Below are positions 15,013 to 62,730 of a DNA stretch of 64,000 nt, one piece after another. How positions within the stretch are numbered: the first letter of the stretch is position 1; the number at the start of each line of letters is the position of its first letter. The position numbers and the translations under genes are program-made. The stretch is from Patescibacteria group bacterium (lineage in GTDB: Bacteria > Patescibacteriota > Patescibacteriia > GWA2-46-9). The stretch is taken from positions 5,720-69,719 of the forward strand of contig JBAZXG010000004.1 in assembly GCA_041660005.1 (NCBI GenBank), read 5' to 3'. Below the pieces are notes generated by a model, which did not search any database, was not told where the DNA came from, and saw only the letters and a program-made list of their open reading frames with translations.

Positions 15013-15053
15013 AGGGCCGGTAGCAGCGTGGGTTTAATCCTGCTGCTCCGGCC
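15013..15053 (-). terminator. Stem-loop terminator downstream of the leuA-like gene.
   Basis: A stem of about 13 bp, gggccgg(t)agcagc / gctgctccggccc, followed on the minus strand by a moderately U-rich tract. Confidence 0.5.
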
Positions 15054-15109
15054 CGTTCTCTCTCCTTCTTGTTATTACCTCCTTCCCTCCTCGGGAAAAC
15101 TGTTCGATG

Positions 15110-16672
15110 TCACGGCCGCTCGACGTCGGTCGCACGAGCGCGGCGGACCTCAAAACGGTTGAGCGCGTCCGTGAAAGCGTACGCGCTTGCCGTCGGTACG
15201 TCGGTGTCCATGCCGTGCCCACGAATGAGCTGGCCGTCGATACTGAGCAAGCAGACCACGCGAGCGTTCGCGTCCGCCCCGACAGTTACTGACTCGCACT
15301 TGTACTCCGACAGAAGAATGATTTTTGCCGTGGGATTGATCTCCTGATAGAACTCAAGAACCCCACGGAAAATCACATTGACGATGCCATCGCCCATCGG
15401 CTCCACCACGCGCAGCGCCCCATCAACTTTTCCGACGACGACAGCCATCACGGATCGTGAGGGCAGACGGCTCATGAGCTGCGCATGGACGAAACGAACG
15501 CGCTCGGGAACATCGTCGCAACCGTCGATAATCGCGAACAGGTCTTCGTTGTAGATCTCCTTCTTTCTGTCTGCCAGTATCTTGAGCCGGTCGAAGCACC
15601 TACGAACGTCGATATCTGCAGGATTGATACCGAGCTCTTTCAGTGCCTCAATAAAGCCGGTCATCCCGGAATGTTTCCCGAGTACCAACTTTGTCCGCAC
15701 TCTGCCGACGTCTTCTGGGCGCATGATCTCGTAGGTGAGAACGTCTTTTGTAACGCCGTCCTGGTGGATTCCGGCTTCGTGCGAGAATGCGTTCGCTCCT
15801 ACGATTGGCTTCGTCGGTGCAATCGGCACACCGACAATATTCGAGAGAGTTTTGCCTGCCGGGTAGAAGTGCTTGGTTCGTACGCGAGTACTAACACCGA
15901 AGTAGTCTTCGCGCGTCCTGAGCGCCATGACCACTTCGTCCATCGCCGTGTTGCCAGCCCGCTCGCCGATCCCGTTGATGGTGCACTCGATCTGTCGGGC
16001 GCCTCCCTCCACAGCTGCCAAGGAATTGGCGACCGCCAAACCGAGGTCGTTGTGGCAATGAGTACTCCAGATGACACGATCGCCTCCCGGAGTACGCGCG
16101 CGCAGCGTACGGAAAAGTTCACGGATCTGAACCGGCACCGCGTAGCCGGTGGTGTCAGGCACGTTGCAGACGACAGCGCCGGCAGCGATGACTGCCCCGA
16201 ACACCTGGATCAGGTATTCGATGTCGCTCCGCGAGGCGTCCTCGGCCGAGAACTCGATGTAGTCAACGTCGCGCCTGCAACGCTGCACTGCCCACACTGC
16301 CGCATCCAGCGCTTCTTGCCGACTCATCCCGAGCTTCTTCTCGAGATGCAAGTCCGAGGTCGCGATGAACACGTGAATCCCCGGCTTATCGGCGCCATCG
16401 ACCGCAGAGAGCGCCCTCTCGATGTCGGCTTCCTTGGTGCGTGCCAAGCTCAGCACCACCGGCCCTTTGACCGCGCGCGCAACCCTTTTCACGGCTTCGA
16501 AATCGCCAGGCGACGCTGCTGCAAAACCCGCTTCAATCACGTCCACCCCGAGCGCCTCGAGTTGGCGGGCAACGACGAGCTTCTCCTCAACATTCATCGT
16601 GCATCCGGGCGATTGCTCGCCGTCTCGGAGGGTCGTGTCGAAAATCCGTACCCAGTCCTTGTCTTCACTCAT
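15110..16672 (-). CDS. leuA: 2-isopropylmalate synthase / citramalate synthase family enzyme (LeuA-like, with a C-terminal regulatory domain). Sits in a GC-rich island.
   Basis: N-terminal [16 protein letters not shown], HxH metal site ([10 protein letters not shown]), and the C-terminal LeuA dimerisation/regulatory domain. The ATG at 16672 has an AAGGAG/AGAGGA Shine-Dalgarno upstream; the track ORF starts at a GTG at 16693. The region is visibly GC-rich compared with its flanks. Confidence 0.8.
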
Positions 16673-16756
16673 CTCCTTAGTCCTCTTCTCCACTAGCCGC
16701 CGCCCAAACAGGACGGGTTACGAACAAACTCACAAACATCGAATTGTTACAGAACA

Positions 16757-16792
16757 ATCAAAAAAGCTCTCCACCCGAGGGTGAAGAGCTTT
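16757..16792 (-). terminator. Rho-independent terminator for the 16958..17722 gene.
   Basis: 14-bp stem aaagctctccaccc / gggtgaagagcttt with one mismatch, followed by UUUUUU on the minus strand. Confidence 0.6.
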
Positions 16793-16957
16793 CGTGCAAG
16801 TATCTAATAAAAAGCTACGCGCAAGACAACTCTTCACCCTTTCGAGGGGTGAGCAAGCTAAGCGGAAGAAGAGTTAGACTTTGCAAGCGGTACATATTGA
16901 TTAATGAAAAGTTATCACCTCACCTACCAGTTGTCAAGATTACGTACAATGGTTGGC

Positions 16958-17722
16958 CTACTCAGTTTTAATCTTTAGTCTTTCAACAATCTCCTCAATA
17001 GCAGCAGTATATTCAGCATGAGCCCTTGGTAACGCAGCTGTATAGGTTTCAATGCCTGTTAACTCTCGTCCTACTTTTGCTTCTGCCTCATCGATTTCTG
17101 GTGTTGTCGCAAAATCAACTATGCCATCCGGCTCTCCAGTTTCTATTTTAACAATAGCACCATCTCCACCAGCTTTAGGATAGTCAAAGAAGGTTACCTC
17201 GCCGCCATCACTATATGCTCTCTTGGCACGTTCCTCACCTGGCTTGCGTACCCAGAGTTGGGTCATTTCTAACGCTCCAAGCCTACCATCTTTTTGAGCC
17301 CACTGGTTTTCAAGTGTATAAACGACACCATTAGCTCCGGGAACTACGATACGACGAATCGAAAGATCATATTTCTTATCCAACTCTAATTCTGTACCTT
17401 TATTATACAAATGCTCATTAATGGCGTTTTGAACTTCCGCGGGTAGTGGAGTAACTTTTTCCTGCGCTGCGTTGAATTCTTTTTCTCGCTCTGTTTGAAT
17501 TGAATCATCTTTCATGCACATCTTCTCTGGGAATTCCATTCTGTTCATGCACATGCGTCGTGCACTTTCCTCGCTAAGCCCGTCTGCTACTAATTGTTCA
17601 ATCTGTGATTGTCCGTTTTCAGTAACGTACTTTTGTACTGCCTCAGCGCTTACTGTACCGGGCGTGAATGCTTCCATTCCTGCAAACGCCGCGCCTATAA
17701 TTTCTTTTTTTCCAAATCTCAT
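16958..17722 (-). CDS. Hypothetical secreted protein with a predicted N-terminal signal peptide.
   Basis: MRFGKKEIIGAAFAGMEAFTPGTVSAEA looks like a signal peptide; no recognisable domain. Confidence 0.5.
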   Translation of the reverse strand: MRFGKKEIIGAAFAGMEAFTPGTVSAEAVQKYVTENGQSQIEQLVADGLSEESARRMCMNRMEFPEKMCMKDDSIQTEREKEFNAAQEKVTPLPAEVQNAINEHLYNKGTELELDKKYDLSIRRIVVPGANGVVYTLENQWAQKDGRLGALEMTQLWVRKPGEERAKRAYSDGGEVTFFDYPKAGGDGAIVKIETGEPDGIVDFATTPEIDEAEAKVGRELTGIETYTAALPRAHAEYTAAIEEIVERLKIKTE

Positions 17723-17787
17723 AGATACGTGAATTTATGGATTAAGTCCCTATATTTTACTATGAAATCCGAAAATTGCAAGGTATG

Positions 17788-18921: not shown

Positions 18922-18934
18922 GTGATAATCGAAA

Positions 18935-19897: not shown

Positions 19898-19920
19898 ACC
19901 TACTAATTCACCTTACCTAA

Positions 19921-22874
<2,954 letters not shown>

Positions 22875-23040: not shown

Positions 23041-23093
23041 AAACAAAAATAAAAAGGGAAAGGAGCTCCAAGCGGTGCGACGCCTGGAGCTCC
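23041..23093 (-). terminator. Rho-independent terminator of the GC-rich two-gene cassette.
   Basis: 9-bp stem ggagctcca / tggagctcc, followed on the minus strand by uuucccuuuuuauuuuuguuu. Confidence 0.65.
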
Positions 23094-23165
23094 TTGTTAG
23101 CATTAAGGCCGTATCCTCAATGCGGTTAATCATGCGCGAAACGGCGCGCAGGCGAAACGACGCGG

Positions 23166-23495
23166 TCAATACTGTTCCGTCAACTCCACTACCCCGTCCC
23201 TCTGGACGTTGAGGTGGCGTCCGGCCTGAATCCGGGCGGCAGCGTACCCAAGTTGGGTAGGCCCTCCGTTGACGACGACCATGTCATCGATCGTCGGGGG
23301 TATGAAATCGAGGCACGCACCGTCCTCACGGACGAAAACGCGGTCGTCGACCTGGTCGTCGGTCGGCCCGTCCTCTCCTTCGCAGACGAGCGCAATGACC
23401 TCAACGTACTCAACCCCTTGCAATGCGAGATACGCCAGCGTATCTCGCACGATGCCCTCGAAAGACCGAGGGCTGAAAGGAATAAAAACTTTCAT
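23166..23495 (-). CDS. Small protein with a P-II/GlnB-like (CutA/DUF190-like) pattern. GC-rich cassette gene 2.
   Basis: MKVFIPFSPRSFEGIVRDTLAYLALQGVEYVEVIAL resembles the GlnB-superfamily N-terminal beta-alpha-beta pattern. ATG at 23495 is preceded by AAGGAG. GC-rich. Confidence 0.4.
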   Translation of the reverse strand: MKVFIPFSPRSFEGIVRDTLAYLALQGVEYVEVIALVCEGEDGPTDDQVDDRVFVREDGACLDFIPPTIDDMVVVNGGPTQLGYAAARIQAGRHLNVQRDGVVELTEQY

Positions 23496-23506
23496 TCGAC
23501 TTCTCC

Positions 23507-23899
23507 TTAGTAGCCACACTCGCAGCTACTGTCACTCGCGTAGGGTTGGCCACACCCAACGCACGTCTCCCAGTGCCATTCCCCCTTATCTTCCTCGTGG
23601 TAGCACTTGGCTTCGTAACCGCCATGTGCCGCCACCATGTGGCGGATCTCCTGTGGTTCGCCACCATCACAGGAAATGGTCACCCGTACCTTGGTTCCGT
23701 TTTCGGAACCCACAGAGCGCAGGGTGGCGTTCACCTCCTGCTTGCTCGAGCAAGGGGTCGTGTACACGGTCCCGTTGGGCCGTGTTTCAGTCACCATGTA
23801 GGTGACCGCCGACCCTACCGGTATTTCTACTGGCGAGTCGATCACCTGCCACCTCGGAACCCACACCGCAGGGGTTCCGCATTTCTTACAAGCTTCCAT
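23507..23899 (-). CDS. Small Cys-rich protein (9 Cys, including an N-terminal CxxC and a C-terminal CxC), probably metal-binding. GC-rich cassette gene 1.
   Basis: MEACKKCGTPAVW...CVGCGQPYASDSSCECGY. ATG at 23899 is preceded by GGAGGAGAGAGAG. The track ORF extends upstream with no support. Confidence 0.45.
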   Translation of the reverse strand: MEACKKCGTPAVWVPRWQVIDSPVEIPVGSAVTYMVTETRPNGTVYTTPCSSKQEVNATLRSVGSENGTKVRVTISCDGGEPQEIRHMVAAHGGYEAKCYHEEDKGEWHWETCVGCGQPYASDSSCECGY

Positions 23900-24223
23900 C
23901 TCTCTCTCCTCGCCGCCGTAGAACCTAGCGGCTTTTGTTTGTAGCGCAACGACCGTAGCCACCGCGCGATGTTGGTGTTTATACCCAACGGCATGAGCCC
24001 GTCGGTCTCTAACTTCCTTGTCTCTCTTCCTTTTGAGATAGAGGGACGAACTTAATTTGAAATATTTTTCAAAGCAAATTCGTCCCGCCGTCACTTTTTT
24101 TAAAGAACCAGGTATAATGACACGTTTGAAGCTTTTTGTCAATAGTTTTTGAGAGAATGTACTAGCACCTTATTTTTGGCTCTTGCCAAAACTGAAACAC
24201 TTTGGTAAGGTATTTCTGTAAAT

Positions 24224-26259: not shown

Positions 26260-26853
26260 ATGGCGAGCAAAAAACTGCAAAAAAAAGTTATCGGCCTAAC
26301 TGGCCCCAAAGGGAGCGGTAAAGGCACCGTGGCCCGCTATTTTGCGCAGCACTACGGTGCGAGCACTATTAGTGGCTCAGATCTTCTGAATGAAATGTTG
26401 GCTGTTGTTGGCATAGAACGTACGCGAGTAAACCAAATAAACCTCGTACAAGCCCTTCGTAAAACATTTGGTTCTGACGTGCTCGGGCGAGCCGCACAAG
26501 CAGCGCTTCGTCGGCTGCCTCCTAACAAACAGCGGCTTGTTGTCATCGACAATATTCGACCACGCGAAGATTGGGATCCGTGGCGCAGCAAAACTAACAC
26601 CGTACTCATTGCCATCACGGCGAAACCTAAAATACGGTTCGAACGCTTACGAAAACGCGGAAAAACTAAAGAGGAAAAAACACTAACCTATGCCCGTTTC
26701 CTTAACGAAGAAGCCCTGCCGACAGAAACAAAAACTATTCAAAAGACAAGTCGGCTAGCAAACTTCACTATTGATGCAAATGGTTCGCGAAAAAACGTCT
26801 ACCAGCAGATTGATCGCATTGCTGCAAAACTCAAACTAAAAAGAACTCAATAA
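26260..26853 (+). CDS. P-loop nucleoside/nucleotide kinase. dephospho-CoA-kinase-like Walker A; possibly a dNMP kinase.
   Basis: GLTGPKGSGKGT Walker A. First gene of the kinase-dcd-thyX-tmk operon. Confidence 0.5.
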   Translation: MASKKLQKKVIGLTGPKGSGKGTVARYFAQHYGASTISGSDLLNEMLAVVGIERTRVNQINLVQALRKTFGSDVLGRAAQAALRRLPPNKQRLVVIDNIRPREDWDPWRSKTNTVLIAITAKPKIRFERLRKRGKTKEEKTLTYARFLNEEALPTETKTIQKTSRLANFTIDANGSRKNVYQQIDRIAAKLKLKRTQ

Positions 26854-30183: not shown

Positions 30184-31728
30184 ATGAGCAGCACAAAATA
30201 CATACCTGTTATTGGCATGGAGGTACACGCCGAACTAAAGACAAACTCTAAAATGTTTTGCCGCTGCCTTAATGATTTTGGGCTTGAAGAGAAACCAAAT
30301 GTTAATGTTTGTCCGGTCTGCCTTGGCCACCCGGGTGCACTTCCGGTCGCAAATATTGAAGCGGTTAAAATGGTTATTAAAGTTGGCCTAGCACTCGGCG
30401 CTGACATTGCCAGGGTTTCAAAATTTGACCGTAAAAACTACTTTTATCCTGACCTCCCAAAGGGCTACCAAATAAGCCAGTACGACCAGCCACTAACCCA
30501 GCACGGTACGCTGGAGGCCAACGGCAAGGCCATAGCCATTACGCGGGTGCACCTTGAGGAAGATACCGGTAAACTGCAGCATCCGGACGGTGCAGAGTAC
30601 TCTCTAGTTGATTTTAACCGATCCGGCGTTCCTTTAATGGAGCTCGTTACTGAGCCTGATATTACCGGAGCCGCAGAGGCAAAAAAATTCTGCCAGGAGC
30701 TACAAATTTTGTTGCGTGCACTTGATGTGTCTGGTGCTGACATGGAAAAGGGGCAGATGCGCTGCGAAGCAAATATTTCGCTCATGCCCGCAAATAAGGA
30801 GCGCAAACCGGAAAATTTTGGCACCAAGGTTGAGGTCAAAAACCTGAACTCGTTTCGAGCAGTCGAGCGCGCCATCGAATATGAAATTACTCGCCAGGAA
30901 GCGGCGCTCGAGGCCGGTGAACTAGTACTCCAAGAAACGCGCGGGTGGAACGATAGCAAACAAGAAACATATTCGCAGCGCAGTAAAGAATCAGCGCATG
31001 ACTACCGCTACTTCCCTGAGCCAGATTTGCCACCAATGGTCTTGGGTCAAATTGACAAGCCGCAACCAGGCGCAATAGTCATTTCAATTGAAGACATTAA
31101 AGCAACGCTACCCGAACTACCGCAGCAACGTCGTGCAAGATTTATGGAAGAATACGCATTTTCAAAAGAAGATGCACATCTCCTCTCTTCGGATTTTGCA
31201 CTCGCCCATTTTACAGAAAATATCTTTGCAGAAATCAAAGGATGGCTAACGACACTTGAAGGAGTCGAAGGCGATGCTGAAGAAATTTGGGAGAAAGAAA
31301 AAAAGAAAGTCGGCAAGCTTGTGTCTGGATGGCTGACGAGCGAACTCTTTAAGCTGATGAATGAAAAAAAATTGACCATCACGGATATAAAGATTACGCC
31401 GACTGCGTTTGCTGGTTTTTTGAAACTTGTCTTTGAACGCAAGGTTAACAGCTCTGCAGCACAAATAGTTCTGCGCGAAATGTTTGAGACCGGTAAAGAC
31501 CCTGAAACGGTGTTAGAAGAAAAGGACTTGCACCAGGTGCACGACAGCGCTTCACTAGATGGAGTTATTGAAAAAATTATCACGGCAAACCCCGGACCTA
31601 TTGCCGACTATAAATCAGGTAAAGAAAACGCCCTGCAGTACCTCATTGGCCAGGGAATGAAAGAGGCCAAAGGTAAGGCAAACCCGGAGAAACTAAAGGA
31701 AATGATTAAGGCAAAGCTCGCCGAGTAG
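30184..31728 (+). CDS. gatB: Asp/Glu-tRNA(Asn/Gln) amidotransferase subunit B.
   Basis: N-terminal IGMEVHAELKTNSKMFCRC...CPVCLGHPGALP and the GatB/YqeY C-terminal domain. Confidence 0.9.
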   Translation: MSSTKYIPVIGMEVHAELKTNSKMFCRCLNDFGLEEKPNVNVCPVCLGHPGALPVANIEAVKMVIKVGLALGADIARVSKFDRKNYFYPDLPKGYQISQYDQPLTQHGTLEANGKAIAITRVHLEEDTGKLQHPDGAEYSLVDFNRSGVPLMELVTEPDITGAAEAKKFCQELQILLRALDVSGADMEKGQMRCEANISLMPANKERKPENFGTKVEVKNLNSFRAVERAIEYEITRQEAALEAGELVLQETRGWNDSKQETYSQRSKESAHDYRYFPEPDLPPMVLGQIDKPQPGAIVISIEDIKATLPELPQQRRARFMEEYAFSKEDAHLLSSDFALAHFTENIFAEIKGWLTTLEGVEGDAEEIWEKEKKKVGKLVSGWLTSELFKLMNEKKLTITDIKITPTAFAGFLKLVFERKVNSSAAQIVLREMFETGKDPETVLEEKDLHQVHDSASLDGVIEKIITANPGPIADYKSGKENALQYLIGQGMKEAKGKANPEKLKEMIKAKLAE

Positions 31729-31854
31729 TGTGTGGATAAGTCATAAACGCCAGTGTTTACTAGGCGTTGACGCAAGACACAAACGCTGATAGCATACGTC
31801 AGGGTATGCATATACCAAAGAAACAATTTCGAAACATAAACAGGGCTTAAATCT

Positions 31855-31879
31855 TCCCCGATCGTGGGGATTTTTTTTT
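31855..31879 (+). terminator. Rho-independent terminator (short hairpin plus T9) after gatB, just before the GC-rich gene.
   Basis: ccccg-atc-gtgggg-a then ttttttttt. Confidence 0.6.
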
Positions 31880-31906
31880 GCCCAAAAAAGGCAACGGAGG
31901 GACACC

Positions 31907-32527
31907 ATGAACGTTCGATCTTTACAGGCGAGGTTCGAAGACCTCTTCAACGAAACAAGGCTTGGCCACCGCTGGCTTCTCGTTGCGGCTATCGCTGACT
32001 GGGCTCTGCGAGCAACCGAGAGAGAGTTCTCCCAAGTGGTCGCGTTCGTCAAAGAACGCGAGGATGTCTGGGCATGGACAGCCGAGACTACTCGAGCACA
32101 CGCGCAGACCAAGGGCGATCCTCATTTCGGCTGGGCGCTCAACGCCGAAACCGCAATACAGGACGTTGGGTCTAATCTCACGCAAAAGCTAGAGGTGAGC
32201 CGAACGACCTGCGAGGCCATCGAGGTTCTTGCCCAACTGGCGATCCAGTGCGCGCTCGACACACGCTCGCCGCTTGCGGCAGAACTGATCTGTGAGTTGA
32301 TCGCCCTCGCTGCGGTAATGCCAAACGACACGACTGGGATCGTTCGGGGAGGAAGGCCTCTCATGTGGACGGTTGCGACAGCATCGTCACACTACGGCCC
32401 AGACGAGGTACGCTACGGCGACGACGCCCTGCTCATCGAAGAACGCCGACATATCCTCGAAGGCGCAGCCACGCTGCGTCACAACCCCGGAGTGGCAACG
32501 CCACTCTACGAAGGCCGATCACCATGA
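31907..32527 (+). CDS. Hypothetical protein in a GC-rich island.
   Basis: 206 aa, no recognisable motif. GGAGGG Shine-Dalgarno 7 nt upstream of the ATG. Composition is clearly GC-richer than gatB and miaA on either side. Confidence 0.5.
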   Translation: MNVRSLQARFEDLFNETRLGHRWLLVAAIADWALRATEREFSQVVAFVKEREDVWAWTAETTRAHAQTKGDPHFGWALNAETAIQDVGSNLTQKLEVSRTTCEAIEVLAQLAIQCALDTRSPLAAELICELIALAAVMPNDTTGIVRGGRPLMWTVATASSHYGPDEVRYGDDALLIEERRHILEGAATLRHNPGVATPLYEGRSP

Positions 32528-32543
32528 TCGGCCTTCACTCCTT

Positions 32544-33446
32544 TCATAACCTTAACCAATCCTTGGTTAGCTTCTTTGCTTCTTCAGCGCTATCTGTCCA
32601 AAAAATACTTTTATCTCTTTTCCACCACGTCATTTGCCGTTTGGCGTACTGGTAGGTATGAGTAACAATTTTTTCTATACATTCTTCCTTTGAAATTTTT
32701 TTGTCCAGATACAAGGCAACTTCTGGATAACCAATACCACTCATAGAAGGCAATGATAAATCGTAGCGCCTTCGAAGCCGCCTCGTTTCTTCAATTAAAC
32801 CGTGAGTCATCATTTGCCTCACACGCTTATCAATGCGCTCACGCAATATCGTACGGTCCATTTGAATGCCAAGTTTTAAAACATCGTAATGCATTCCTTT
32901 TTTCGTTCTGCCGGTAATCGACGAGTTACCAATAGCACTTGCCACTTCTATAGCACGAATAACTCTCCGAGCGTTTTTAGCGTCAACTCGCGCTGAAACT
33001 AAAGGATCAAGACGCTCTAATTTTTCAACCAAATGCGACAAACCATGTTTTTCAAGCTCACGCTCGAGTTTTGTCCTCAATTTTTTATCTGGTGGAATTT
33101 GTGGCACATCCCAATTTTCTACCAGCGCATCAATAAAAAGCGCTGTTCCGCCAACAACTATCGGCAGTTTTTTGCGCTTATGAATTAGAGCAATCGCTTT
33201 TGCAGCATCCTCCTTAAACCTTTGAACAGAATACGGTTTGTCAGGGTCAACAATACTAACAAGCTGCTGCTTTATACCGCGTGGCGGGACAAGTTTAGCG
33301 GTGGCAACGTCCATTCCACGGTAGACTTGCCTCGAATCAGCAGAAATAAGTTCGCCTTGAAATTTTCGAGCAAGCTTAATAGCGAGATCAGATTTTCCCG
33401 ATGCAGTTGGACCAAGAATAACTAAAACTTTTTTCTGATTAATCAC
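32544..33446 (-). CDS. miaA: tRNA dimethylallyltransferase, with a GTG start.
   Basis: VLVILGPTASGKSDLAIKLA P-loop and DSRQVYRGMDVATAK. Confidence 0.9.
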   Translation of the reverse strand: MINQKKVLVILGPTASGKSDLAIKLARKFQGELISADSRQVYRGMDVATAKLVPPRGIKQQLVSIVDPDKPYSVQRFKEDAAKAIALIHKRKKLPIVVGGTALFIDALVENWDVPQIPPDKKLRTKLERELEKHGLSHLVEKLERLDPLVSARVDAKNARRVIRAIEVASAIGNSSITGRTKKGMHYDVLKLGIQMDRTILRERIDKRVRQMMTHGLIEETRRLRRRYDLSLPSMSGIGYPEVALYLDKKISKEECIEKIVTHTYQYAKRQMTWWKRDKSIFWTDSAEEAKKLTKDWLRL

Positions 33447-33484
33447 TACGCAATACTAACTTAATAAGATAAATCGCTCAAGAA

Positions 33485-33782
33485 CAGAAAAAACCCTATT
33501 CGGGTTTATCGATCTTACAAATGGCTATTTGCCACTAGCCATTTGCTAACTTATATATTCGCCCAAAGAACCAAAGAAATAAAAAGTGTAAGTGCACTAC
33601 CGAATACGAAAAAATTATCGTCAATGGTTTCTAGCCACCGCTGAACGCCTGTTGTTTTTAAAATGGGGAAAAATACACCAAAAGTACCAGCCAAGAGCTC
33701 GCGCATACTTTTATTTTTTGTTTTATTTTACGAACTTTACGAACGTATTATATAGTATAGCGTATTTTTTCAAAAAAATCAA
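33485..33782 (-). ncRNA. Candidate small RNA or regulatory transcript. A strong promoter (TTGATT-17-TATACT), about 260 nt of AT-rich non-coding sequence, then a rho-independent terminator.
   Basis: Minus-strand -35 at 33777-82 and -10 at 33754-59. Terminator aaaccc-tattc-gggttt plus U6 at 33487-33507. A direct repeat GUUCGUAAA x2 sits near the 5' end and an internal hairpin atggcta/tagccat is present. No ORF longer than 15 codons. miaA has its own promoter-like TTGAGC-16/17-TAGTAT downstream. Confidence 0.4.
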
Positions 33783-33783
33783 G

Positions 33784-33830
33784 TTAAAAACGATTGAGCC
33801 GGTGCAGTCCTCCTTGATCTGCACCGGCTC
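33784..33830 (-). terminator. Rho-independent terminator of the GC-rich 33850..34416 gene.
   Basis: Perfect 12-bp stem gagccggtgcag / ctgcaccggctc with an 11-nt loop, followed on the minus strand by UUUUUA. Confidence 0.75.
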
Positions 33831-33849
33831 CCTCTCGTAAATTGATTGC

Positions 33850-34416
33850 TCAGCCCCCGCCAAGCGTGAGCAACGCGAATTCGAACGCATCCGAAATCGC
33901 AATCCAACTGCCAGCTGTTACGCTCTTGCTCATAGCCGCAGTTGCCCAGACGAGCTCTCCGAGTTCCCACTCAACATGAACCCGAACGGGTGAATCAGCA
34001 CCCGACGACCCATTTGCTGGCTTGACCGTGTAATCGGTCAGTGTGAGCTGTTCAAGTCCTGGGTAGGTACCCTTGAGGGCACGCCGTGCCGCCATGTCGA
34101 GGGCACACACAGGGCCGTTTCCCGGAGCAGCGACGTGCAACGGCTCGGCGACACCACGAATCCTAATATTGAGGGTTGCCTCTGCCTGACTGTGACCCTC
34201 TGAATCGCCGATCTCGTAGATTCGATACCGATCAGCAACGAAGGGCAATTCGTAACCCGGTGTTGATTGCAAGAGCCGCATGCCAAGAGAGACGACCTCA
34301 CGCACCTCGTAGCCGCCACTTCCGCCAAGAATCTCGGCGACAAATTCAGCGGTCCCACCGGACAGGTCAAGCCCTAACCGTCGGAAATGCCCAAGAGTCA
34401 CGTTTGTCTTCCTCAT
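33850..34416 (-). CDS. Hypothetical protein in a GC-rich island, resembling a standalone LeuA C-terminal regulatory (LeuA_dimer-like) domain.
   Basis: GNGPVCALDMAARRAL and a C-terminal SKSVTAGSWIAISDAFEFAL resemble the two beta-alpha-beta halves of the LeuA allosteric domain (recalled from memory, not searched). The Met at 34416 is preceded by GGAGGA; the track ORF extends to 34491. Confidence 0.35.
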   Translation of the reverse strand: MRKTNVTLGHFRRLGLDLSGGTAEFVAEILGGSGGYEVREVVSLGMRLLQSTPGYELPFVADRYRIYEIGDSEGHSQAEATLNIRIRGVAEPLHVAAPGNGPVCALDMAARRALKGTYPGLEQLTLTDYTVKPANGSSGADSPVRVHVEWELGELVWATAAMSKSVTAGSWIAISDAFEFALLTLGGG

Positions 34417-34502
34417 CTTATCCTCCGCAAATTGCGTTCTTCGGTTGTAACGAACGGGGAAGTGAATCCCCTCCTCACTTCCCGCATCCATTTCTCGATG
34501 GA

Positions 34503-34533
34503 TACAAAACGCCAGCCCGGTGAAGGGCTGGCG
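34503..34533 (-). terminator. Rho-independent terminator of the giant subtilase gene.
   Basis: Perfect 9-bp stem cgccagccc / gggctggcg with loop ggtgaa, and a U-rich tract on the minus strand. Confidence 0.6.
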
Positions 34534-34679
34534 CTGGAATTCAAGTTAATCTTTAACTACAGCGTAAACCTTCCACCCCACAAGGGCTGGCTAATAATAA
34601 TGCTAATAATCTGGGCAAAAATCACTCTCTTCATATCTGTTAGGGCTATGTTACCACGACTAAATGAGGTGTCAATAAC

Positions 34680-37600
34680 TTAGTTCGTTGACCCGCCGGG
34701 TGCAAAGAGGACGGGTTCTAGGCCAGTCACCGGAGCGCCATCGGGGTACGCAAACTGCATTTCACTAATACCCCGCACAAAGTACTCCAACTGAAACTGG
34801 TTCTCTCGCATTCCACGGTCAGTTATCAGTCGGCGTTGTCCGTTCATCATTACATAGCGAAGGTGTGATCCGGCATAATTAAACACAGTGCCGTCCGGAT
34901 GCGGCGAAGACATCGTTAATGGTTCTCCTACGGTGTACTGCACCATAACGTCATCTGGAAGCGTGACAATGCGATCTCTCCAATTGGTGCCATACAACCT
35001 CTCCCCCACATCGTCAGTTTCAATCCAATGCAATACTCCACCGGGCGAAACAGCATAGACGTGTGGATCAGTTTCTATTTTTACCAAACGAGTTCCCGGA
35101 CGAACATGCGTTATGCCACTCAAAGGGTAGTAACTTAACTCCTCATCAGTTATGGCAATGACCTTTGGGTCTCTTTTGTACCAGCTACGGAACGTAACAC
35201 CATCTTCGAGGAAAGCATAGCGTTTACCATCATACCCAACAAAATACAGAGTATCGGGCCACACAGCTTTCACTACATCACCAGGGGCGGCTCGCCAGTG
35301 CGTCGGTTCGGCGCCAAGATAACGACCAGATCTTTCGTTGTCGCGATGAAACGTAGGCCATGGACTAAGAGTATTCCCGTCTGTGGTTCCATCGAGCTCC
35401 CAAACATAAATTGAACTACGATACTTGCTGTTCCTGGTCGACATCTCCGAATCCCAATCAGAACTTGCCACAATCTCAACCTTACCGTCGTTATCGATAT
35501 CAGCAACGGTTGCCGGTGCCTGTGCGTCCTGTTCAGTAATCTTAGGAAAGCCAGGTAAAACAATTCCAGCTGCGTCCCAAGCGTAAACACCGCCACCAAC
35601 CGATATGCCGCCGGCTGTTGTCAGTACATCTACTTTGTCGTCTGCGTCTACATCACTAATAATCGTAGAGTAATAATCATTCCACCCTGTCTGCTTTGGC
35701 CAACCAGGCATAAACGTGCCATCACTCTCAAAAGCTGCCGTTTCAAGGCCAAGACTACTGCCAACAACCTCTAAGTCCCCATCGTTGTCTAGATCGGCGA
35801 GTGAAGGTGATGACCAGAAATTATAACCCTTTCGTGCCGGCCAGCCCGGTAACATGTTTCCGCCTCGGTCAAAAACCGCCAGCCCGCCATAATTATAATC
35901 GGGCCATATCTCAGAGGCGTACTGCAAACCAACAACAATATCTTCGCGTCCGTCTTTGTCTAGGTCTCCAATAGCAGGAGATGAAAAAATTATACCCTGC
36001 GTGATAACGGGCCAACCATCTACCAAAGAACCATCCATATTGAACACTAAAATCTCACCATCGTTATTCCATCCTACAAATTTACCATCCTCAACGATTC
36101 CTCCTGCTTTTTCCGAAGGACGCACAATGACAATTTCAAGATCTTCGTCGTCGTCAAAATTACCTACCGCCGGCGTCGATTCATGATCGGCTCCCCAAGA
36201 ATTCTTTGAAAGTTGCCAGTCCGAGTACACAGTACCGTCGCTTCGCAGCACGGTAACATAATCTTCCCATGAACGAGAATGAATAATTATTTCGTACCGA
36301 CCATCTCGGTCAAGATCGGCCGCGGCAATGGTCGAACTGTAAGACGAAGGAATGACCCGAGGCCATCCCGCCAACATCTTACCCCTCGCATCAAAGCCGT
36401 AAATGTTAGAACCACTACCATCGTCAAACTGGTTGGTAACAAATATTTCTTTTTTCCCGTCGCCGTCGACATCGATTACTAATGGAATGTGCAGGTTGCC
36501 GCCAGTGGCAGCCCCGGTTCCGACATCGCTTACCCATAGTTGTTTCCCGCTGTCTGAAAAAGCGTACAACTTGGGAGGTTTACCGCCAACGTACGCGATA
36601 ATTTCCTTTTTTCCTTTGCCGTTGATATCACTAACGACTGGTGTAGCGTAACCGCCCCAAATTTTGCAGCCCGGTCCTGGTGCTGGGAACCAGTCATCAG
36701 CACAATCTTCAAAAGGTAACCTAACCGGCCAACCCTCCTTGAGAGTTGAGTCTAAGTAGACATGAACAGTAGACTGTTCGATTGTTGATCCGTACGTTAC
36801 GGTAACGTTTAAACTATACCAACCAGTAGAGAGCCCTCTGGTATCCCAGGCCTTAAGCGAACGAATTTTTGTCCAGCTGGTTGGCTGGTACCCTGACCCG
36901 TATTCAATACTCGTAACTTTTGCTCTGAGACCAGCTACCGCACGTATGTCTACCGGAACAACATCTCCCGCTCGTATAACATCTGAATCCAAGGGCGAAA
37001 CAAAAGTGACATTTTTAACAGAGACGTAGCCGTAATCTACGGCGCGCTCTATTACTTCTTGCCCGTCATATTTCTTCGCAACCACCCTAACCACGTAATC
37101 ACCACTAGACATTTTAAATGTGTCCAAAGGCCACACGATGTGCTCAAACCCTCCGCCATAGTTCTGGTGGAAAAGTTCTACCCAAGCATCTTCACTCGCA
37201 CTACTAGCGAGAGGTGCGTAGCTAAGAAATATCTGCCCACCACCAACGCTCTGAACAGTATAATCAATGTTTCGTATCTGACCCTCGCTCAAGATAGGTT
37301 GAATATTAACAATGGTTGGATGGTTTGGAATAGCCGCCGCCTTCAATACATCAATGCGACCACTTCCTTGCTCAATCGCAGTAACACCCAGGTTAGAAGC
37401 CGTATTTTTGAAAGCCGCTTTTATTTCCCGTGCACTCCAATCCGGATGCAATTGTTTTAAAAGTGCCGCCGCCCCAGCGACATGCGGGGTAGCCATTGAG
37501 GTGCCGGAGATCGCAATGTGTTCGCTGTCTAAACAGAGAGACCCATTAGCGTAATTGTCGTGCTGAGCAGCGCAAATACCAACCCCCGGAGCTGTTATAT

Positions 37601-38963: not shown

Positions 38964-39220
38964 AGTGTTCAAAAAAATTAGAGAAAACCCTTTTAGAAGG
39001 GTTGAATATCTTAGCAAAAATTAGCTTTTTGTCAAGGCGACTGCGGGGACCCACTATAAAATGACCAAAAAGCGAAGGTATCATTTTTTTATACCAACGC
39101 AGGCAGCGACGACGCAAAAAGATATAAATGGTATTAACCCCAGGGCTAAGCCCTGGATTTCTCAATTCGCCCGTGGGCGAAGTGAGAAAGGGAGCGCGAC
39201 AGAGCTACGCAAGTATCAAA

Positions 39221-41461: not shown

Positions 41462-42583
41462 TTATTCAAAACGAACCTGAATTTTGTTAGGTAACCGGGG
41501 TAAGTGCTTTTGCCAGTAGGGCGTCAGCTCGACATTTACGCTGTCAACACCTTCGAAGTTCATTAAAAACTGTTTCACCTCGTTCGGCGTAGCGCCAACA
41601 AAATTAATTGGAGAAAATACGGAACTGGTTGTATCAAGATTTGCTCCGACCTTCGCGCGTCCGCTCACTACAGCCGTTCTCGCCACGGGGTCATAATTAT
41701 CAATTGCATAGTGCCACTCGGTGTCGCTGACCGTCACGCCACTACCTGCTGTCTCTTTAACTCTTTCTTTCAATGCATTCTTACTAAATGCCGCTGCAAT
41801 AACTTTCACTTTCATGGAAACAGTAAGGGCTGCTGCCTTCTCCCCAACTTTACTCGAATCTGTCTCCTGAATGACTTGCGTTATAAAGTCGGCGTCGGTA
41901 AGGTCCCCGCTTGCCACTTGGGCAACATCAGCACTTTTCACGGCGTCAATGGCACGACTGAGTAAGGTTTGCTTTGCGTTCTCTAAATCCTGCTCACTAA
42001 CTGCCCGCACTGCCGCCCCACCTCGAGCCATGGCGCTATTTGACGTCGCATAAATCGAATTCTGTAAACTTGCAGAAAGACCGGGTATAGTAAAGCGGCT
42101 CGGACCAATGAGGAAGCTATCGTCAGTTCCATCTGCTTCTACAACTGCAGTCACTTCACCTTTGGCAGGAACTCGGACCGCCTGCTTTAACCGAAAAAGT
42201 ATGTTATCAGCTGTGAGCAAACGTGTAGTTTCAACAAGCGGCTGCGGCCTGTCGGTAGTGTTGGTAATAGTTACAACGCCACCGGCCTTCGCTGTTGCCT
42301 CAGTACCACCAGGCAGCAGAAAAGTGTCAGAAACGTCTTGTGTGGTTTCTAAAAAGGTAGCAGGTATGTTTTTACTGGGTATGTTTTGTCCAATGGTTTC
42401 TTCGGCTAATATGGCCTTGTAAACCACTTCTCGCTCGACCGCATGACGTCGAACAACCACAACCGCATGGGATAAAGTCGTATAAGCAATAAACAGCAAC
42501 AACAAAACCGTCAGCACGACGAAAGTGATGGCGATGTTTCTCAAAACTTTTGCTTTGTCCGGCATCAAATCAAATTCCCCCAT
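41462..42583 (-). CDS. Hypothetical membrane-anchored protein with a large extracytoplasmic domain, possibly with YbbR-like repeats.
   Basis: Single N-terminal TM (IAITFVVLTVLLLLFIAYTTL); repetitive beta-rich sequence; no diagnostic motif. Confidence 0.4.
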   Translation of the reverse strand: MGEFDLMPDKAKVLRNIAITFVVLTVLLLLFIAYTTLSHAVVVVRRHAVEREVVYKAILAEETIGQNIPSKNIPATFLETTQDVSDTFLLPGGTEATAKAGGVVTITNTTDRPQPLVETTRLLTADNILFRLKQAVRVPAKGEVTAVVEADGTDDSFLIGPSRFTIPGLSASLQNSIYATSNSAMARGGAAVRAVSEQDLENAKQTLLSRAIDAVKSADVAQVASGDLTDADFITQVIQETDSSKVGEKAAALTVSMKVKVIAAAFSKNALKERVKETAGSGVTVSDTEWHYAIDNYDPVARTAVVSGRAKVGANLDTTSSVFSPINFVGATPNEVKQFLMNFEGVDSVNVELTPYWQKHLPRLPNKIQVRFE

Positions 42584-53569: not shown

Positions 53570-53654
53570 ATTGAAATAGTATAGCATTATTGAAAAATGA
53601 TGCCCGGCGTCGCTCTTGGTGAGCGAGCGCCGGGCGGCGGACGGAAAACGGAGC

Positions 53655-53888
53655 TCATGGCGAGGCTCCAGTGGGATTCTTCTTCCGGCTGAGAACGCCG
53701 GTGAGCAGATCCAACATCTGCCTGGGACCAAACCCGGTAGGAAGCTCGTGCCTCCTGTTTGCGGCTTCCCCCTGAATCCGCTTATCGAGCGCCTTGAGCG
53801 TTCTGAGACTACACGCCTCGAGGTCACTCCTCGCTTCCGCGGGGTTCAGGCTGAGAAATGCAACGATGTCGAGGTCTTGAATCGGCAT
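53655..53888 (-). CDS. Small hypothetical protein (77 aa), GC-rich cassette gene 2.
   Basis: MPIQDLDIVAFLSLNPAEARSDLEACSLRTLKALDKRIQ... A perfect AGGAGG lies 7 nt upstream of the ATG. GC-rich. Confidence 0.45.
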   Translation of the reverse strand: MPIQDLDIVAFLSLNPAEARSDLEACSLRTLKALDKRIQGEAANRRHELPTGFGPRQMLDLLTGVLSRKKNPTGASP

Positions 53889-53901
53889 TATAAGGGGCCT
53901 C

Positions 53902-54024
53902 CTAGTCCCCGAACGACGCAGGCCCAATCAGGGCTTCTTGCTCTGCTTCCGGAAGGTCCGGAAACGTCGTAATGCGGATCACTTCTTCTGCCGCCACTTC
54001 CCCAGCCACGCCTTCGTTCTTCAT
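53902..54024 (-). CDS. Very small acidic protein (40 aa), GC-rich cassette gene 1.
   Basis: MKNEGVAGEVAAEEVIRITTFPDLPEAEQEALIGPASFGD. AGGGAG lies 5 nt upstream of the ATG. Its stop overlaps the Shine-Dalgarno of the next gene. Confidence 0.35.
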   Translation of the reverse strand: MKNEGVAGEVAAEEVIRITTFPDLPEAEQEALIGPASFGD

Positions 54025-54042
54025 GATTTCTCCCTATAACGC

Positions 54043-54071
54043 AAACTGCTCCGAGTTCTTCGGAGCAGTTT
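54043..54071. other. Perfect 11-bp-stem hairpin at the boundary between eno and the GC-rich mini-cassette.
   Basis: aaactgctccg-agttctt-cggagcagttt. A T-rich tract follows on the plus strand only. Confidence 0.4.
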
Positions 54072-54221
54072 GGGTCTTTGTTATTGAACGTTGACCTCAA
54101 ATTGCTCCGTCGTCGACAACGACAATACCAACGACGTTCTTCACGACGATGGAATTAAGAGAGTTTGAGGTGATGTGTTTCATCTTTACTAACATAGCAC
54201 ATCCGACTCGAACGTCAAGCG

Positions 54222-56446: not shown

Positions 56447-56447
56447 A

Positions 56448-58904: not shown

Positions 58905-58964
58905 AATGAAAATACAGTTAATAGGTGCTAATAGTATAGCAGAACAAAGTCGGACGACCAAAAG

Positions 58965-59819
58965 TTACCCTTTGCCAATGCCAAACAAGTGCTTGGCATT
59001 TGCAGTCGTCGTGCGGGCAACCTCATCAAAGGAAAGACCTTTTATTTTTGCGAGGTGCGCTGCAGTGTAGGCAACGTACGCTGGTTCATTACGTTTTCCT
59101 CGATGCGGAACCGGTGTCAAATATGGACAATCTGTTTCTACGAGTAGTTTTTCTAACGGCGTTTTTCTGATAAAGGAATCCCAGCTTTGAGCAAAAGTAA
59201 TAATGCCTGAAAAGGAAATGTAAAAACCCAGGCTCATCAACCGTTCAGCTTCCTCTTCGGCGCCCGTAAAACAATGGATAACACCCCGCACTTTTGCATA
59301 CCTCGCTTGGGCCTCTTTAAGCATACGGTAGACGTCATCATAAGCGTCTCGGCAGTGAATAGAGAGCGGTAAATTAAGGTCTACGGCGAGTAAAATCTGC
59401 TGGCGAAAAACATCCTGCTGCGTACGTTTAACCGCTTCACGCTCGGCCTCAGTTCCTTCCAGCCGATAGTAATCGAGACCGACTTCACCGATTGCTACAA
59501 CTTTTGGCGAAGATCTTGCAAGGCGACGGTACATTTCAGCATCGAATATTTCCGCGCGACGGCGAAACCCCCCGCCGACCGGCGCACCCGTTTCTTCCGC
59601 GGGATCAAAGTACCCCTCGGTGGTATGCACCGGGTGCAGGCCTATGGCGGCCCACGCCCCGTCGTAACGCTTCGCGGTTTCTACTGTTTTTACACTTGTG
59701 TCCGCTTGCGTGCCGACGAGCAGCATCTCCACATTCGCTGCTAGTGAACGCCGAATAACCGCGTCACTATCTTCGCGGAAAGCGTTAAAATGTGGATGGG
59801 CGTGCGAGTCAAACAGCAT
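58965..59819 (-). CDS. tatD: TatD-family metal-dependent hydrolase/DNase.
   Basis: N-terminal LFDSHAHPHF and the downstream His/Asp/Glu pattern of the TatD TIM barrel. Confidence 0.8.
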   Translation of the reverse strand: MLFDSHAHPHFNAFREDSDAVIRRSLAANVEMLLVGTQADTSVKTVETAKRYDGAWAAIGLHPVHTTEGYFDPAEETGAPVGGGFRRRAEIFDAEMYRRLARSSPKVVAIGEVGLDYYRLEGTEAEREAVKRTQQDVFRQQILLAVDLNLPLSIHCRDAYDDVYRMLKEAQARYAKVRGVIHCFTGAEEEAERLMSLGFYISFSGIITFAQSWDSFIRKTPLEKLLVETDCPYLTPVPHRGKRNEPAYVAYTAAHLAKIKGLSFDEVARTTTANAKHLFGIGKG

Positions 59820-60346: not shown

Positions 60347-60349
60347 GTT

Positions 60350-61855: not shown

Positions 61856-61948
61856 ACGACTACCGAAAGCGTAGCGCGCCTAGGGCATTTGGTAAAGACG
61901 ACTCCACGAAAAGTCCCCTAACCGCTTCAGAGGATAAATGTAAAATGA

Positions 61949-62015
61949 CAAAAAAGGACGAGGGGCGGATCAATCAGCAGCACTGTTGCTACCAATCGAA
62001 CCCGCCCCTCTCGTC
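61949..62015 (-). terminator. Rho-independent terminator with a long loop, after the small acidic-protein gene and upstream of metG.
   Basis: 12-14-bp stem gacgag(a)ggggcgg / ccgcccctctcgtc with a loop of about 30 nt, then CUUUUUUGU on the minus strand. Confidence 0.55.
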
Positions 62016-62016
62016 A

Positions 62017-62259
62017 CTAGTGGACGTTCGGCTTCGGAGGCTGACCTCCGTAGATGGTTTCGAACGCCTGATCGAGACTTGCTAGGGCAATGAACTCTTC
62101 GCGCATTGCCTGGCTCGTGCAGCGATCAAGAATGTCCGCCCATTGGGTCGAACCCCTTTTCCCTTCCCGAACTTCGTCAGAGAATTCACCGAGGAGCTCA
62201 GCGAGAAGGTTCTCTTCTTCCTCACCCAACTCCTGGTCGTTGTCGTCAGAATCAGCCAT
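62017..62259 (-). CDS. Small acidic protein (80 aa), GC-rich cassette gene.
   Basis: MADSDDNDQELGEEEENLLAELL... A GAGGAG Shine-Dalgarno lies about 7 nt upstream. GC-rich. Confidence 0.45.
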   Translation of the reverse strand: MADSDDNDQELGEEEENLLAELLGEFSDEVREGKRGSTQWADILDRCTSQAMREEFIALASLDQAFETIYGGQPPKPNVH

Positions 62260-62277
62260 GATGTTGTCTCCTCTTGG

Positions 62278-62730
62278 CTAGCGTAGTACCTCATGACCAG
62301 CGTTGCAGTGATGAGTGCGGTAATCGGCTAACGCACGGAGAACCGCGTCTTTGAACCGCTCCGCCCGGGGCTGGTCTTCGATTGTTCGCTTGATCGTCAC
62401 GATCGTGGTTTTCATGACAATCACTCGGTTGTACCGGTGGGCCAGAGTCCAGAACCCCCAGGCGCCATAGGCAAACCATGGATCATTCCAGTAGAGCGAC
62501 GCAGGCACACAGGCAATCGCGAGGAGCAGGAGAAAAATGCCGACCAAGCTAGGTCGGACATCAATCCTCGTAATACCACTGATCGGATACGTGCCAGCGA
62601 CATCGTAGCGACCCCGCGCGCCAGTGAATAGACGCTCTTCGACGATTCCCTCAGTAAGAGCCAACTCACCCTCTCCGCGGCTCGAAGTGAACCACCCCAG
62701 AAACGGGACATCTGCCAAAATACGGTTCAT
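62278..62730 (-). CDS. Small membrane protein (about 150 aa), GC-rich cassette gene.
   Basis: Central hydrophobic stretch LVGIFLLLLAIACVPASLYW...WGFWTLA. The Met at 62730 has GGAGAGAGG 8 nt upstream; the track ORF extends to 62772. Confidence 0.45.
   Translation of the reverse strand: MNRILADVPFLGWFTSSRGEGELALTEGIVEERLFTGARGRYDVAGTYPISGITRIDVRPSLVGIFLLLLAIACVPASLYWNDPWFAYGAWGFWTLAHRYNRVIVMKTTIVTIKRTIEDQPRAERFKDAVLRALADYRTHHCNAGHEVLR

Follow-up and report, generated by a model that had tools for sequence, protein, structure and literature searches.

Six GC-rich, Shine-Dalgarno-led gene islands on a Patescibacteria contig and putative branched-chain amino acid attenuators in front of three of them

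The enterobacterial leu, ilvGMEDA and ilvBN operons are preceded by leuL, ilvL and ivbL, short open reading frames (ORFs) with a cluster of end-product codons; downstream come a GC-rich terminator that ends in a U-run and an antiterminator that competes with it, and Leu leaders are paired with leuA and Ile/Val leaders with ilv genes. Patescibacteria (candidate phyla radiation, CPR) are considered auxotrophic for amino acids, with minimal regulation. In Actinobacteria, which have many leaderless genes, a leader ORF with Leu codons lies upstream of monocistronic leuA as part of the LEU element, a pseudoknot in which the Leu codons pair with the Shine-Dalgarno (SD) site of leuA without a clear terminator, and candidate leader peptides and terminators occur upstream of ilvB (PMC1262725, Seliverstov et al. 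2005). A full-text literature search returned no paper that pairs leader-peptide attenuation with Patescibacteria. Here, a 64,000-nucleotide stretch of a Patescibacteria group bacterium (assembly GCA_041660005.1, contig JBAZXG010000004.1, positions 5,720 to 69,719 of the forward strand; referred to as the window) was analysed, in which six GC-rich, SD-led islands stand among SD-poor genes and three of the islands lie behind putative attenuators.

The islands, labelled I1 to I6 in window order and comprising nine genes in total, are probably six foreign expression cassettes, four of them old and two lineage-specific, with three forming a dispersed branched-chain attenuation regulon. Judged by their sequence features, I1, I4 and I5 appear to be preceded by leader-peptide transcription attenuators, each of which is conserved in relatives. 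These share with the enterobacterial leaders the short ORF with its codon cluster, the GC-rich terminator with U-run, a candidate competing antiterminator that is clear for the Leu leader, and, for the Leu and Ile leaders, the match between the leader amino acid and the branched-chain pathway. Unlike those leaders, they are found in a Patescibacterium, their leader ORFs lack an SD and begin 7-13 nt from a -10 box, the targets are single genes rather than operons, the Ile leader belongs to citramalate synthase or its regulatory domain, the Val leader precedes micro-ORFs, and no Rfam leader family is matched. In contrast to the LEU element, a plain terminator/antiterminator pair is present and the SD follows about 70 nt further downstream.

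The host is an Uhrbacteria-like Patescibacterium represented by a metagenome-assembled genome (contig of 141,810 bp; NCBI locus tags of the window genes, WC817_03xxx), and the islands are lodged between its housekeeping genes. The window was compared with a related Patescibacterium (Rel; contigs L082 and L085, 100% identical in their overlap; background GC about 0.39), which is syntenic with the window at 9-46 kb and has housekeeping proteins mostly 57-88% identical to those of the window (GyrB 77%, GatB 72%); with Candidatus Uhrbacteria CG10_big_fil_rev_8_21_14_0_10_48 (Uhr; L167, GCA_002793855.1); with a fourth genome (Rel4; contig L171); and with a donor-like contig of GC 0.63 that holds a LeuA homolog (L084). 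An independent Logan assembly of run SRR18595301 reproduced positions 30447-39154 at 100% identity. Searches of the whole window yielded no tRNA or tmRNA gene and, with Rfam at the gathering threshold, no credible family.

By log-odds segmentation (GC 0.60 versus 0.47), the following six loci and no seventh segment of comparable size were recovered in the window:
15014-16717: I1, GC 0.593, segmentation score 51.9
23062-24005: I2, GC 0.590, segmentation score 27.1
31959-32533: I3, GC 0.612, segmentation score 23.2
33798-34384: I4, GC 0.584, segmentation score 15.1
53602-54012: I5, GC 0.613, segmentation score 16.8
61956-62716: I6, GC 0.566, segmentation score 12.4

An earlier note on this DNA had picked out the same six loci by eye against a background of about 45% GC. 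The enrichment stands, with island GC of 0.57-0.61 against a window median of 0.475 (0.48 overall), and the background figure has to be raised to about 47.5%. In shuffled sequence the maximum score averaged 8.7 and reached 14.8, so that I6 is the sole marginal island. The compositional deviation expected at these loci was also seen in GC content at third codon positions (GC3), where the excess chiefly resides: GC3 is 0.58-0.71 in island ORFs versus 0.33-0.54 in native ORFs. The rise is present in all amino-acid codon families. It therefore stems from composition rather than from amino-acid usage, and a rise confined to Leu, Ile and Val codons, which would have meant robustness to starvation, was rejected on the same ground. 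No further island was found in the 8 kb beyond the end of the window. A survey of 114 other Patescibacteria loci gave 2.8 GC-rich segments per 64 kb, mostly small. The two that were inspected are strong GC-rich islands on a more distant Patescibacteria contig (L052, 3387-4610 and 11834-12790), one of them directly after gatB; both encode Cys-rich or secreted proteins unrelated to the islands of the window. Within the window, a 126-bp patch of 71% GC (59552-59677) lies inside a TatD-family ORF and encodes a Gly/Ala/Arg-rich stretch.

The islands also differ from their surroundings in translation initiation. Predicted pairing with the anti-SD sequence amounts to -7.0 to -11.7 kcal/mol in all nine island genes, compared to a median of -0.95 kcal/mol in 48 native genes (Mann-Whitney p = 4e-6). 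A value of -6 kcal/mol or below is reached by 9/9 island and 4/48 native genes, one of the latter four being an ORF over-extended into I5, so that the earlier observation of an SD in every island gene and of its native rarity was borne out. Native genes with an ATG start instead carry T at position -1 in 27 of 37 cases (binomial p = 8e-9) and C at -2 in 51%, compared to T at -1 in none of the nine island genes (Fisher p = 8e-5). A possible cause of the T at -1 is that U(-1) pairs with A37 of the initiator tRNA. The same bias (56-77%) was found in four related genomes, in which native genes seldom have an SD and favour T at -1, the genes of high GC3 being the SD-led island orthologs. Examples of native starts with non-SD context are:
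25017, 25506, 26260 and 30184

Extended -10 boxes (TGCTAYRMT) were located 6-9 nt before the ATG of the native genes 7612-8856, 21981-22874, 26260-26853 and 41462-42583, which suggests leaderless or near-leaderless mRNAs for these four.

A GC-rich hairpin (-21 to -53 kcal/mol, z = -3.9 to -7.1) followed by a U-rich tail closes each of the six islands, which confirms the strong terminator that had been proposed for all of them; the top matches of a terminator scan of the window are two of these island-end hairpins. The islands look like autonomous transcription units, each of which combines one or two SD-led ORFs with an intrinsic terminator and a promoter or leader. They share no similarity with one another and are not paralogs.

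In order to find leader peptides blindly, both strands were scanned for a short ORF with at least five identical residues per nine-residue window followed by a terminator. The scan returned a Leu, an Ile and a Val leader and one out-of-frame match inside a coding region, compared to 0.1 matches per window in shuffled sequence. The Leu leader stands before the gene for 2-isopropylmalate synthase and the Ile leader, in Rel, before that for citramalate synthase. Few non-coding stretches of these loci are as well conserved as the leaders and terminators. A shared function of the islands, which had been left open before, holds for three of them, putatively gated by Leu-, Ile- and Val-rich leaders; the attenuators would respond to amino acids.

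The Leu leader belongs to I1, which consists of the following elements:
16909-16938, minus strand: promoter-like site CTTGACA-N17-TAACTT, same arrangement in Rel and Uhr
16815-16895, minus strand: Leu-rich leader ORF MYRLQSLTLLPLSLLTPRKGEELSCA, 8/26 Leu, without SD, found in the blind scan
16759-16792, minus strand: attenuator terminator, 14-bp stem and U-run
15110-16672, minus strand: leuA, 2-isopropylmalate synthase of 520 aa, SD AGAGGA/AAGGAG, GC3 0.71
15005-15054, minus strand: 3′ terminator, -39.1 kcal/mol, z = -4.2, conserved in Rel

In Rel the homologous leader reads MHKLSNNLLLLNLLLLTKDGELTCA, in Uhr it reads MKFYQSTISLLLPLLTPTRGGELSRA, and the leader RNA is conserved across the three genomes with four compensatory pairs. 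The segment GGGTGAAGAG can pair either with the upstream CTCACCC or with the terminator arm CTCTTCACCC, and when the 5′ part was masked in folding, the antiterminator took the place of the terminator. LeuA scores 632.9 bits against NF002086 (equivalog cut-off 532) and has the complete set of Pfam domains (HMGL-like, HCS_D2 and LeuA_dimer). The gene lies at the same locus, between FtsW and hyp/L25, in the window, Rel (L082) and Uhr, and in Rel the order is FtsW, leuA, 111-aa ORF and L25; the flanking proteins are 56-88% identical between the window and Rel. Its GC3 is high there as well (0.60 in Rel versus 0.27-0.37 in native genes, 0.66 in Uhr versus 0.40-0.48). The 3′ untranslated region of leuA (15055-15109) contains an SD-like, purine-rich run, GGAGGGAAGGAGG...AGAAGGAGAGAGAA, which has been preserved in Rel (L082, 7579-7640) and could be a relic ribosome binding site of a lost downstream gene or part of the terminator.

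The Ile leader precedes I4:
34648-34675, minus strand: promoter-like site TTGACA-N16-TAACAT, equivalent site in Rel
34557-34634, minus strand: Ile-rich leader ORF MKRVIFAQIISIIISQPLWGGRFTL, 7/25 Ile, found in the blind scan
34502-34533, minus strand: attenuator terminator CGCCAGCCC-ttcacc-GGGCTGGCG and U-run, with alternative 1:4 and 2:3 pairings
33850-34416, minus strand: stand-alone LeuA_dimer protein of 188 aa, SD GCGGAGGA
33786-33830, minus strand: 3′ terminator, z = -5.0

Leader and terminator are almost invariant across the window, Rel and Rel4 (leader counterparts MILRISAQIISIIISQPLSGRFTL in Rel and MQYQSSSYIISIIISQPEEGGRFAL in Rel4), and the alternative 2:3 helix appears in the consensus fold of the three genomes. 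The I4 protein matches PF08502 (LeuA_dimer; E = 3e-12) and TIGR00977 (E = 7e-22) at model positions 398-518 only. It was therefore rejected as a citramalate synthase enzyme (CimA): the catalytic HMGL-like domain is absent and the regulatory domain alone is present. Citramalate synthase is the enzyme of the pyruvate route to isoleucine. At the same place after miaA, Rel encodes the full-length enzyme (TIGR00977, 690 bits versus a cut-off of 450), of which the window retains only the last ~190 residues. The Rel4 ortholog is likewise a free LeuA_dimer protein (185 aa), and both free proteins have a common N-terminal extension and keep the motifs G-(N/D)-G-P..ALD and EASW. A PDB sequence search with I4 gave no match.

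Several neighbours of I4 were noted. Rel and Rel4 share with the window a 51-aa hydrophobic ORF (33551-33706, minus strand) between miaA and I4; it has a promoter a short distance upstream and is a predicted small native membrane protein. The gene miaA itself (32544-33446, tRNA-i6A37 transferase) is flanked by I3 and I4 and so lies between two attenuator-type leaders. MiaA-dependent tRNA modification affects attenuation in model bacteria; the position of miaA here may be a coincidence. On the other side of I4, a 1445-aa S8-peptidase/FG-GAP protein (34680-39017) has native composition and is absent from the syntenic loci of the relatives. The same holds for a 297-aa ORF without family match at 21981-22874; high GC is therefore not a constant property of insertions in this lineage.

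The Val leader belongs to I5, which lies between eno and a helicase gene:
54191-54219, minus strand: promoter CTTGACG-N16-TATGTT, 7 nt before the leader ATG (leaderless)
54097-54183, minus strand: Val-rich leader ORF MKHITSNSLNSIVVKNVVGIVVVDDGAI, 8/28 Val, found in the blind scan
54038-54072, minus strand: attenuator hairpin, 13-14 bp stem
53902-54024, minus strand: I5a, 40 aa, with SD, NCBI MFA5954595.1, singleton cluster
53655-53888, minus strand: I5b, 77 aa, with SD, singleton cluster
53593-53635, minus strand: 3′ terminator, conserved in Uhr with 77% identity

In Uhr the unit likewise lies between eno and the helicase gene, with the promoter CTTGACG...TATGAT and the leader MQCITSNYFNFTGIKLVGGIVVVDDGVV (74% DNA identity over the leader), and the interior cannot be aligned with that of the window. 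A Pfam search at E <= 10 with three forward frames of I5 in the window and one frame of the Uhr counterpart yielded nothing meaningful. An alternative 2:3 pairing (GGAGCAAUUUG with CAAACUGCUCC, 10/11 bp) was recognized by eye only. More distant enolase relatives lack the eno/helicase arrangement, and those genomes are therefore uninformative on I5.

From these features a mechanism can be proposed. The leader ORFs, whose -10 boxes are located 7-13 nt before the ATG, would be read by the SD-independent mode of the host. Under a shortage of the cognate charged tRNA, the ribosome would stall in the leader at the Leu, Ile or Val codons, an antiterminator would form and RNA polymerase would read into the GC-rich gene. 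This gene lies ~70-100 nt behind structured RNA, where initiation dependent on the 5′-end would not be possible, and would thus rely on SD-led translation, which would give a functional reason for keeping the SDs.

The remaining three islands encode orphan proteins. I3 lies in the gap between gatB and miaA and also has a structured leader:
31767-31879, plus strand: leader with promoter TTGACG-N17-TAGCAT
31792-31809, plus strand: 5′ hairpin of the leader
31806-31850, plus strand: mini-ORF of the leader (MHIPKKQFRNINRA)
31855-31879, plus strand: terminator of the leader
31907-32527, plus strand: helical protein of 206 aa, SD GGAGGGA
32510-32536, plus strand: 3′ hairpin overlapping the stop codon, z = -6.9, same design in Rel and Rel4

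The 5′ hairpin is predicted to sequester the ATG of the mini-ORF. Rel and Rel4 preserve the leader architecture, including 4 compensatory pairs, and Rfam with an E-value threshold gave no credible family for it. An exhaustive HMMER scan of 1.84 billion representatives returned one homolog of the I3 protein (P0243, 45% identity), and it is this ortholog that occupies the gatB/miaA gap of Rel4. In the same gap of Rel, a GC-rich ORF of nearly the same length has the same promoter, leader and stop-overlapping hairpin; BLASTP gave no alignment between this ORF and I3, and the two are positional counterparts only. The AlphaFold model of I3 (aligned with P0243) has a predicted local distance difference test score (pLDDT) of 45.

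I2 and I6 each comprise two genes:
24114-24142, minus strand: I2 promoter-like site TTGACA-N17-CATTAT, best promoter match, followed by a ~210-nt leader
23507-23899, minus strand: I2a, Cys-rich ORF of 130 aa (MEACKKCG...CECGY), SD GAGGAGAG
23166-23495, minus strand: I2b, ORF of 109 aa, SD AAGGAGAA, singleton cluster, NCBI MFA5954570.1
23045-23095, minus strand: I2 3′ terminator, 15-bp stem; the 124-nt 3′ flank folds at -53 kcal/mol
62278-62772, minus strand: I6b, 164 aa (150 aa if the start is 62730), hydrophobic segment, SD AAGGAGGG
62017-62259, minus strand: I6a, acidic ORF of 80 aa, SD AAGAGGAGA
61950-62010, minus strand: I6 3′ terminator, -43 kcal/mol, z = -7.1

The I2 leader contains no leader ORF and had no Rfam match with an E-value threshold; for I6 a candidate leader ORF was unconvincing. 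The description of I2b as P-II-like had to be dropped, since no Pfam or NCBIfam family matched even at E <= 10 and the AlphaFold model is unusable (pLDDT 43). Rel, Uhr and Rel4 lack I2, their GyrB and SecE genes being adjacent, and Uhr lacks I6, with 119 bp between HU and metG. A 14-nt repeat (22036-22049 and 24096-24109, 13/14 identical, 2060 bp apart) brackets the 297-aa ORF together with I2, and a 12-nt direct repeat (61940-61951 and 62932-62943, 11/12 identical, 992 bp apart) brackets I6; both could be scars of insertion or T-rich matches that arose by chance. For I2a, I2b, I3, I5a, I5b, I6a and I6b no Pfam or NCBIfam family was found, a Pfam search at E <= 10 with I2a, I2b, I3, I6b and the ORF at the I3 position of Rel gave nothing meaningful, tblastn of the seven orphan proteins, concatenated into one query, against plasmids and phages gave no match, and neither did scans of viral contigs with I2a, I2b and I6b. 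The orphan proteins are singletons at 90% identity in a collection of 15 billion proteins.

With regard to age, I1, I3, I4 and I5 are found at the same loci, GC-rich and SD-led, in 1-3 relatives whose housekeeping proteins are ~50-90% identical; in Rel (L085) and Rel4 (L171), I3 occupies the gatB/miaA gap and I4 follows miaA. In ~160 more distant Patescibacteria gatB loci no such islands were found. The leuA copies are 0.28-0.41 identical at four-fold sites, compared to 0.27-0.29 expected if they were independent, and are as diverged as gyrB and gatB. Owing to the shared loci and the near-saturated four-fold sites, these four islands predate the divergence of the genomes; they are regarded as old residents of the clade, and I2 and I6 as lineage-specific additions. 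Of the repeated acquisition from high-GC sources that was proposed earlier, the foreign composition and SD use stand, as does the homology of leuA, but recent events do not, given that four islands are conserved in position. The earlier note would have taken homologs at the same loci in all related genomes with matching composition as a refutation; this applies by half, as homologs at the same loci exist, but they are GC-rich there too.

With regard to origin, leuA is the informative island. The best LeuA matches are 65-73% identical, and the top one (P0004, 73%) is encoded on a Rel contig. The named ones belong to Candidatus Binatia, Limnocylindrales and Deltaproteobacteria and to one Hyphomicrobiaceae; there is no actinobacterium among the named top matches, and the suggested actinobacterial donor is not upheld, the best named matches being those from Binatia, Limnocylindrales and Deltaproteobacteria (65-69%). 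A homolog of 72% identity lies on L084 (63% GC) beside ilvN, ilvC, psd and pssA and is preceded by its own Leu leader (MVSYVYKALAGLLLLRCPSGVSPVV; ..AGLLLLR..) and terminator, so that leader and leuA could have arrived together. The homology of LeuA to high-GC lineages supports a putative high-GC donor, and with it a high-GC origin of leuA, outside Patescibacteria. Lawrence and Ochman reportedly put forward an amelioration model for horizontally transferred atypical genes. As in such genes, the islands have deviant composition and foreign-type ribosome binding sites, and LeuA has relatives outside the phylum; they differ in that the islands are single-gene units without mobility genes, positionally conserved in deeply diverged relatives and still GC-rich. 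Transfer of metabolic genes into Patescibacteria is documented, most of the detected transfers are not recent, and ancient transfers are expected to become undetectable by composition (PMC12455944).

Several observations speak against a regulon of old foreign cassettes. Regarding attenuation, the U-tail of the I5 hairpin is weak, its 2:3 pairing is not the minimum-energy fold and its terminator still forms when the 5′ part is masked; the masked minimum-energy fold of the I4 leader keeps the terminator as well. No leuBCD or ilv genes were found in the 64 kb, in the 8 kb beyond its end or at the loci of the relatives. Regarding transfer, the leaders of L084 and the window have no detectable sequence similarity, and leader GC is host-like (0.45 in the window, 0.35-0.38 in Rel and 0.47 in Uhr), compared to 0.63 in the donor-like leader. 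A neighbor-joining tree pairs LeuA of the window and Rel and places Uhr LeuA elsewhere, and each Patescibacteria LeuA is about equally close to the donor-like protein and to the others; independent acquisitions of leuA are thus less likely but conceivable. The GC of leuA at four-fold sites (GC4) is 0.72, 0.60 and 0.70 in the window, Rel and Uhr versus 0.39-0.55 in native genes, and the GC offset of the islands is similar in genomes whose backgrounds are 10 points apart; neutral amelioration over near-saturating divergence should have erased most of this excess. Its persistence may be due to slow mutation, to repeated replacement in situ or to selection that acts on the composition of codons or mRNA. 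Finally, no donor or homolog of I2, I5 and I6 was found in Pfam, NCBIfam or the plasmid, phage and viral collections, and I3 has one homolog, inside the clade. It is therefore the composition that argues for a foreign origin of the four orphan islands I2, I3, I5 and I6.

Other explanations were weighed against this background. The persistent GC excess leaves some room, as an unlikely but still arguable reading, for selection that maintains a second, SD-dependent and GC-rich coding mode for a few conditional, attenuator-gated genes; composition and ribosome binding sites would then be functional in a branched-chain starvation regulon, the free LeuA/CimA domain would be an Ile/Leu sensor, and fast-evolving micro-proteins would stand under the Val leader. 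Slightly less credence is given to the orphan islands I2, I3, I5 and I6 being native and fast-evolving, with GC and SD due to selection or local mutational bias and true transfer confined to leuA and cimA. The lack of a donor, the clade-internal homolog of I3, the interiors of I3 and I5 that diverge far faster than their flanks, the host-like leaders and the constant GC offset fit this idea, but leuA bears the same signature and is related to high-GC lineages beyond the group, the rise of GC3 extends to all codon families as foreign composition predicts, and we know of no mechanism that raises GC3 locally by 0.2. We also doubt, a little more strongly, that the islands are decaying leftovers of a larger acquired branched-chain pathway, with I4 and the I5 micro-ORFs non-functional and the attenuators relics: Rel has a full-length citramalate synthase where the window keeps the last ~190 residues, the I5 interior is unalignable with Uhr and without family match in the frames searched, and no leuBCD or ilv genes were seen nearby, but the LeuA_dimer ORF of I4 is intact, SD-led, orthologous in two genomes and retains its motifs, leuA is intact in three genomes, and leaders and terminators are well conserved. 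Streamlined genomes, moreover, usually delete dead DNA.

It is improbable that the islands represent six separate and fairly recent acquisitions from a high-GC, SD-using donor, for instance Actinobacteria, whose composition has not yet ameliorated. The GC3 contrast (0.58-0.71 versus 0.33-0.54), the foreign-type SD sites, the lack of I2 in three relatives and of I6 in one, and the short direct repeats around I6 and around the 297-aa ORF with I2 would be accounted for, but the identical loci of I1, I3, I4 and I5 behind homologous leaders and their near-saturated four-fold sites refute it for these four, and the named top LeuA matches (Binatia and Limnocylindrales best) include no Actinobacteria. 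Mobile cassettes, such as integron cassettes, small transposons or prophage-style morons, are very improbable. Like phage morons, the islands are independent promoter-to-terminator units of deviant GC between conserved genes, and short direct repeats occur at I6 and I2; unlike morons, they have no prophage context and no phage homologs and are stably inherited. No integrase, transposase, attC-like site or terminal inverted repeats were found, there is no similarity between islands, no phage, plasmid or viral relatives were detected, and within the clade the islands keep their positions. An artefact, either of chimeric assembly or of contamination by a high-GC organism during binning, has the composition contrast and nothing else in its favour and is refuted by six precisely intergenic inserts that are each joined to native promoters and leaders, by the identical independent assembly of 30447-39154 and by the same architecture in 3-4 other assemblies from other samples.

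Horizontally transferred cassettes and leader-peptide attenuators are known classes, to which the islands add one unexplained feature, the persistence of GC-rich, SD-led coding regions. The retention of SD sites and GC-rich codons across near-saturated divergence, with leaders that are host-like, challenges the use of composition as a clock of transfer, and the locus is a natural experiment on the expression of foreign genes in a genome largely without SD-led initiation. Three attenuators, a free regulatory domain and several micro-ORFs are offered as testable parts. If the proposed reading is true, the Leu, Ile and Val attenuators would mean that Patescibacteria monitor charged tRNA by coupled transcription and translation, and that at least the enzymes at the entry to the leucine and isoleucine branches are retained in these cells.

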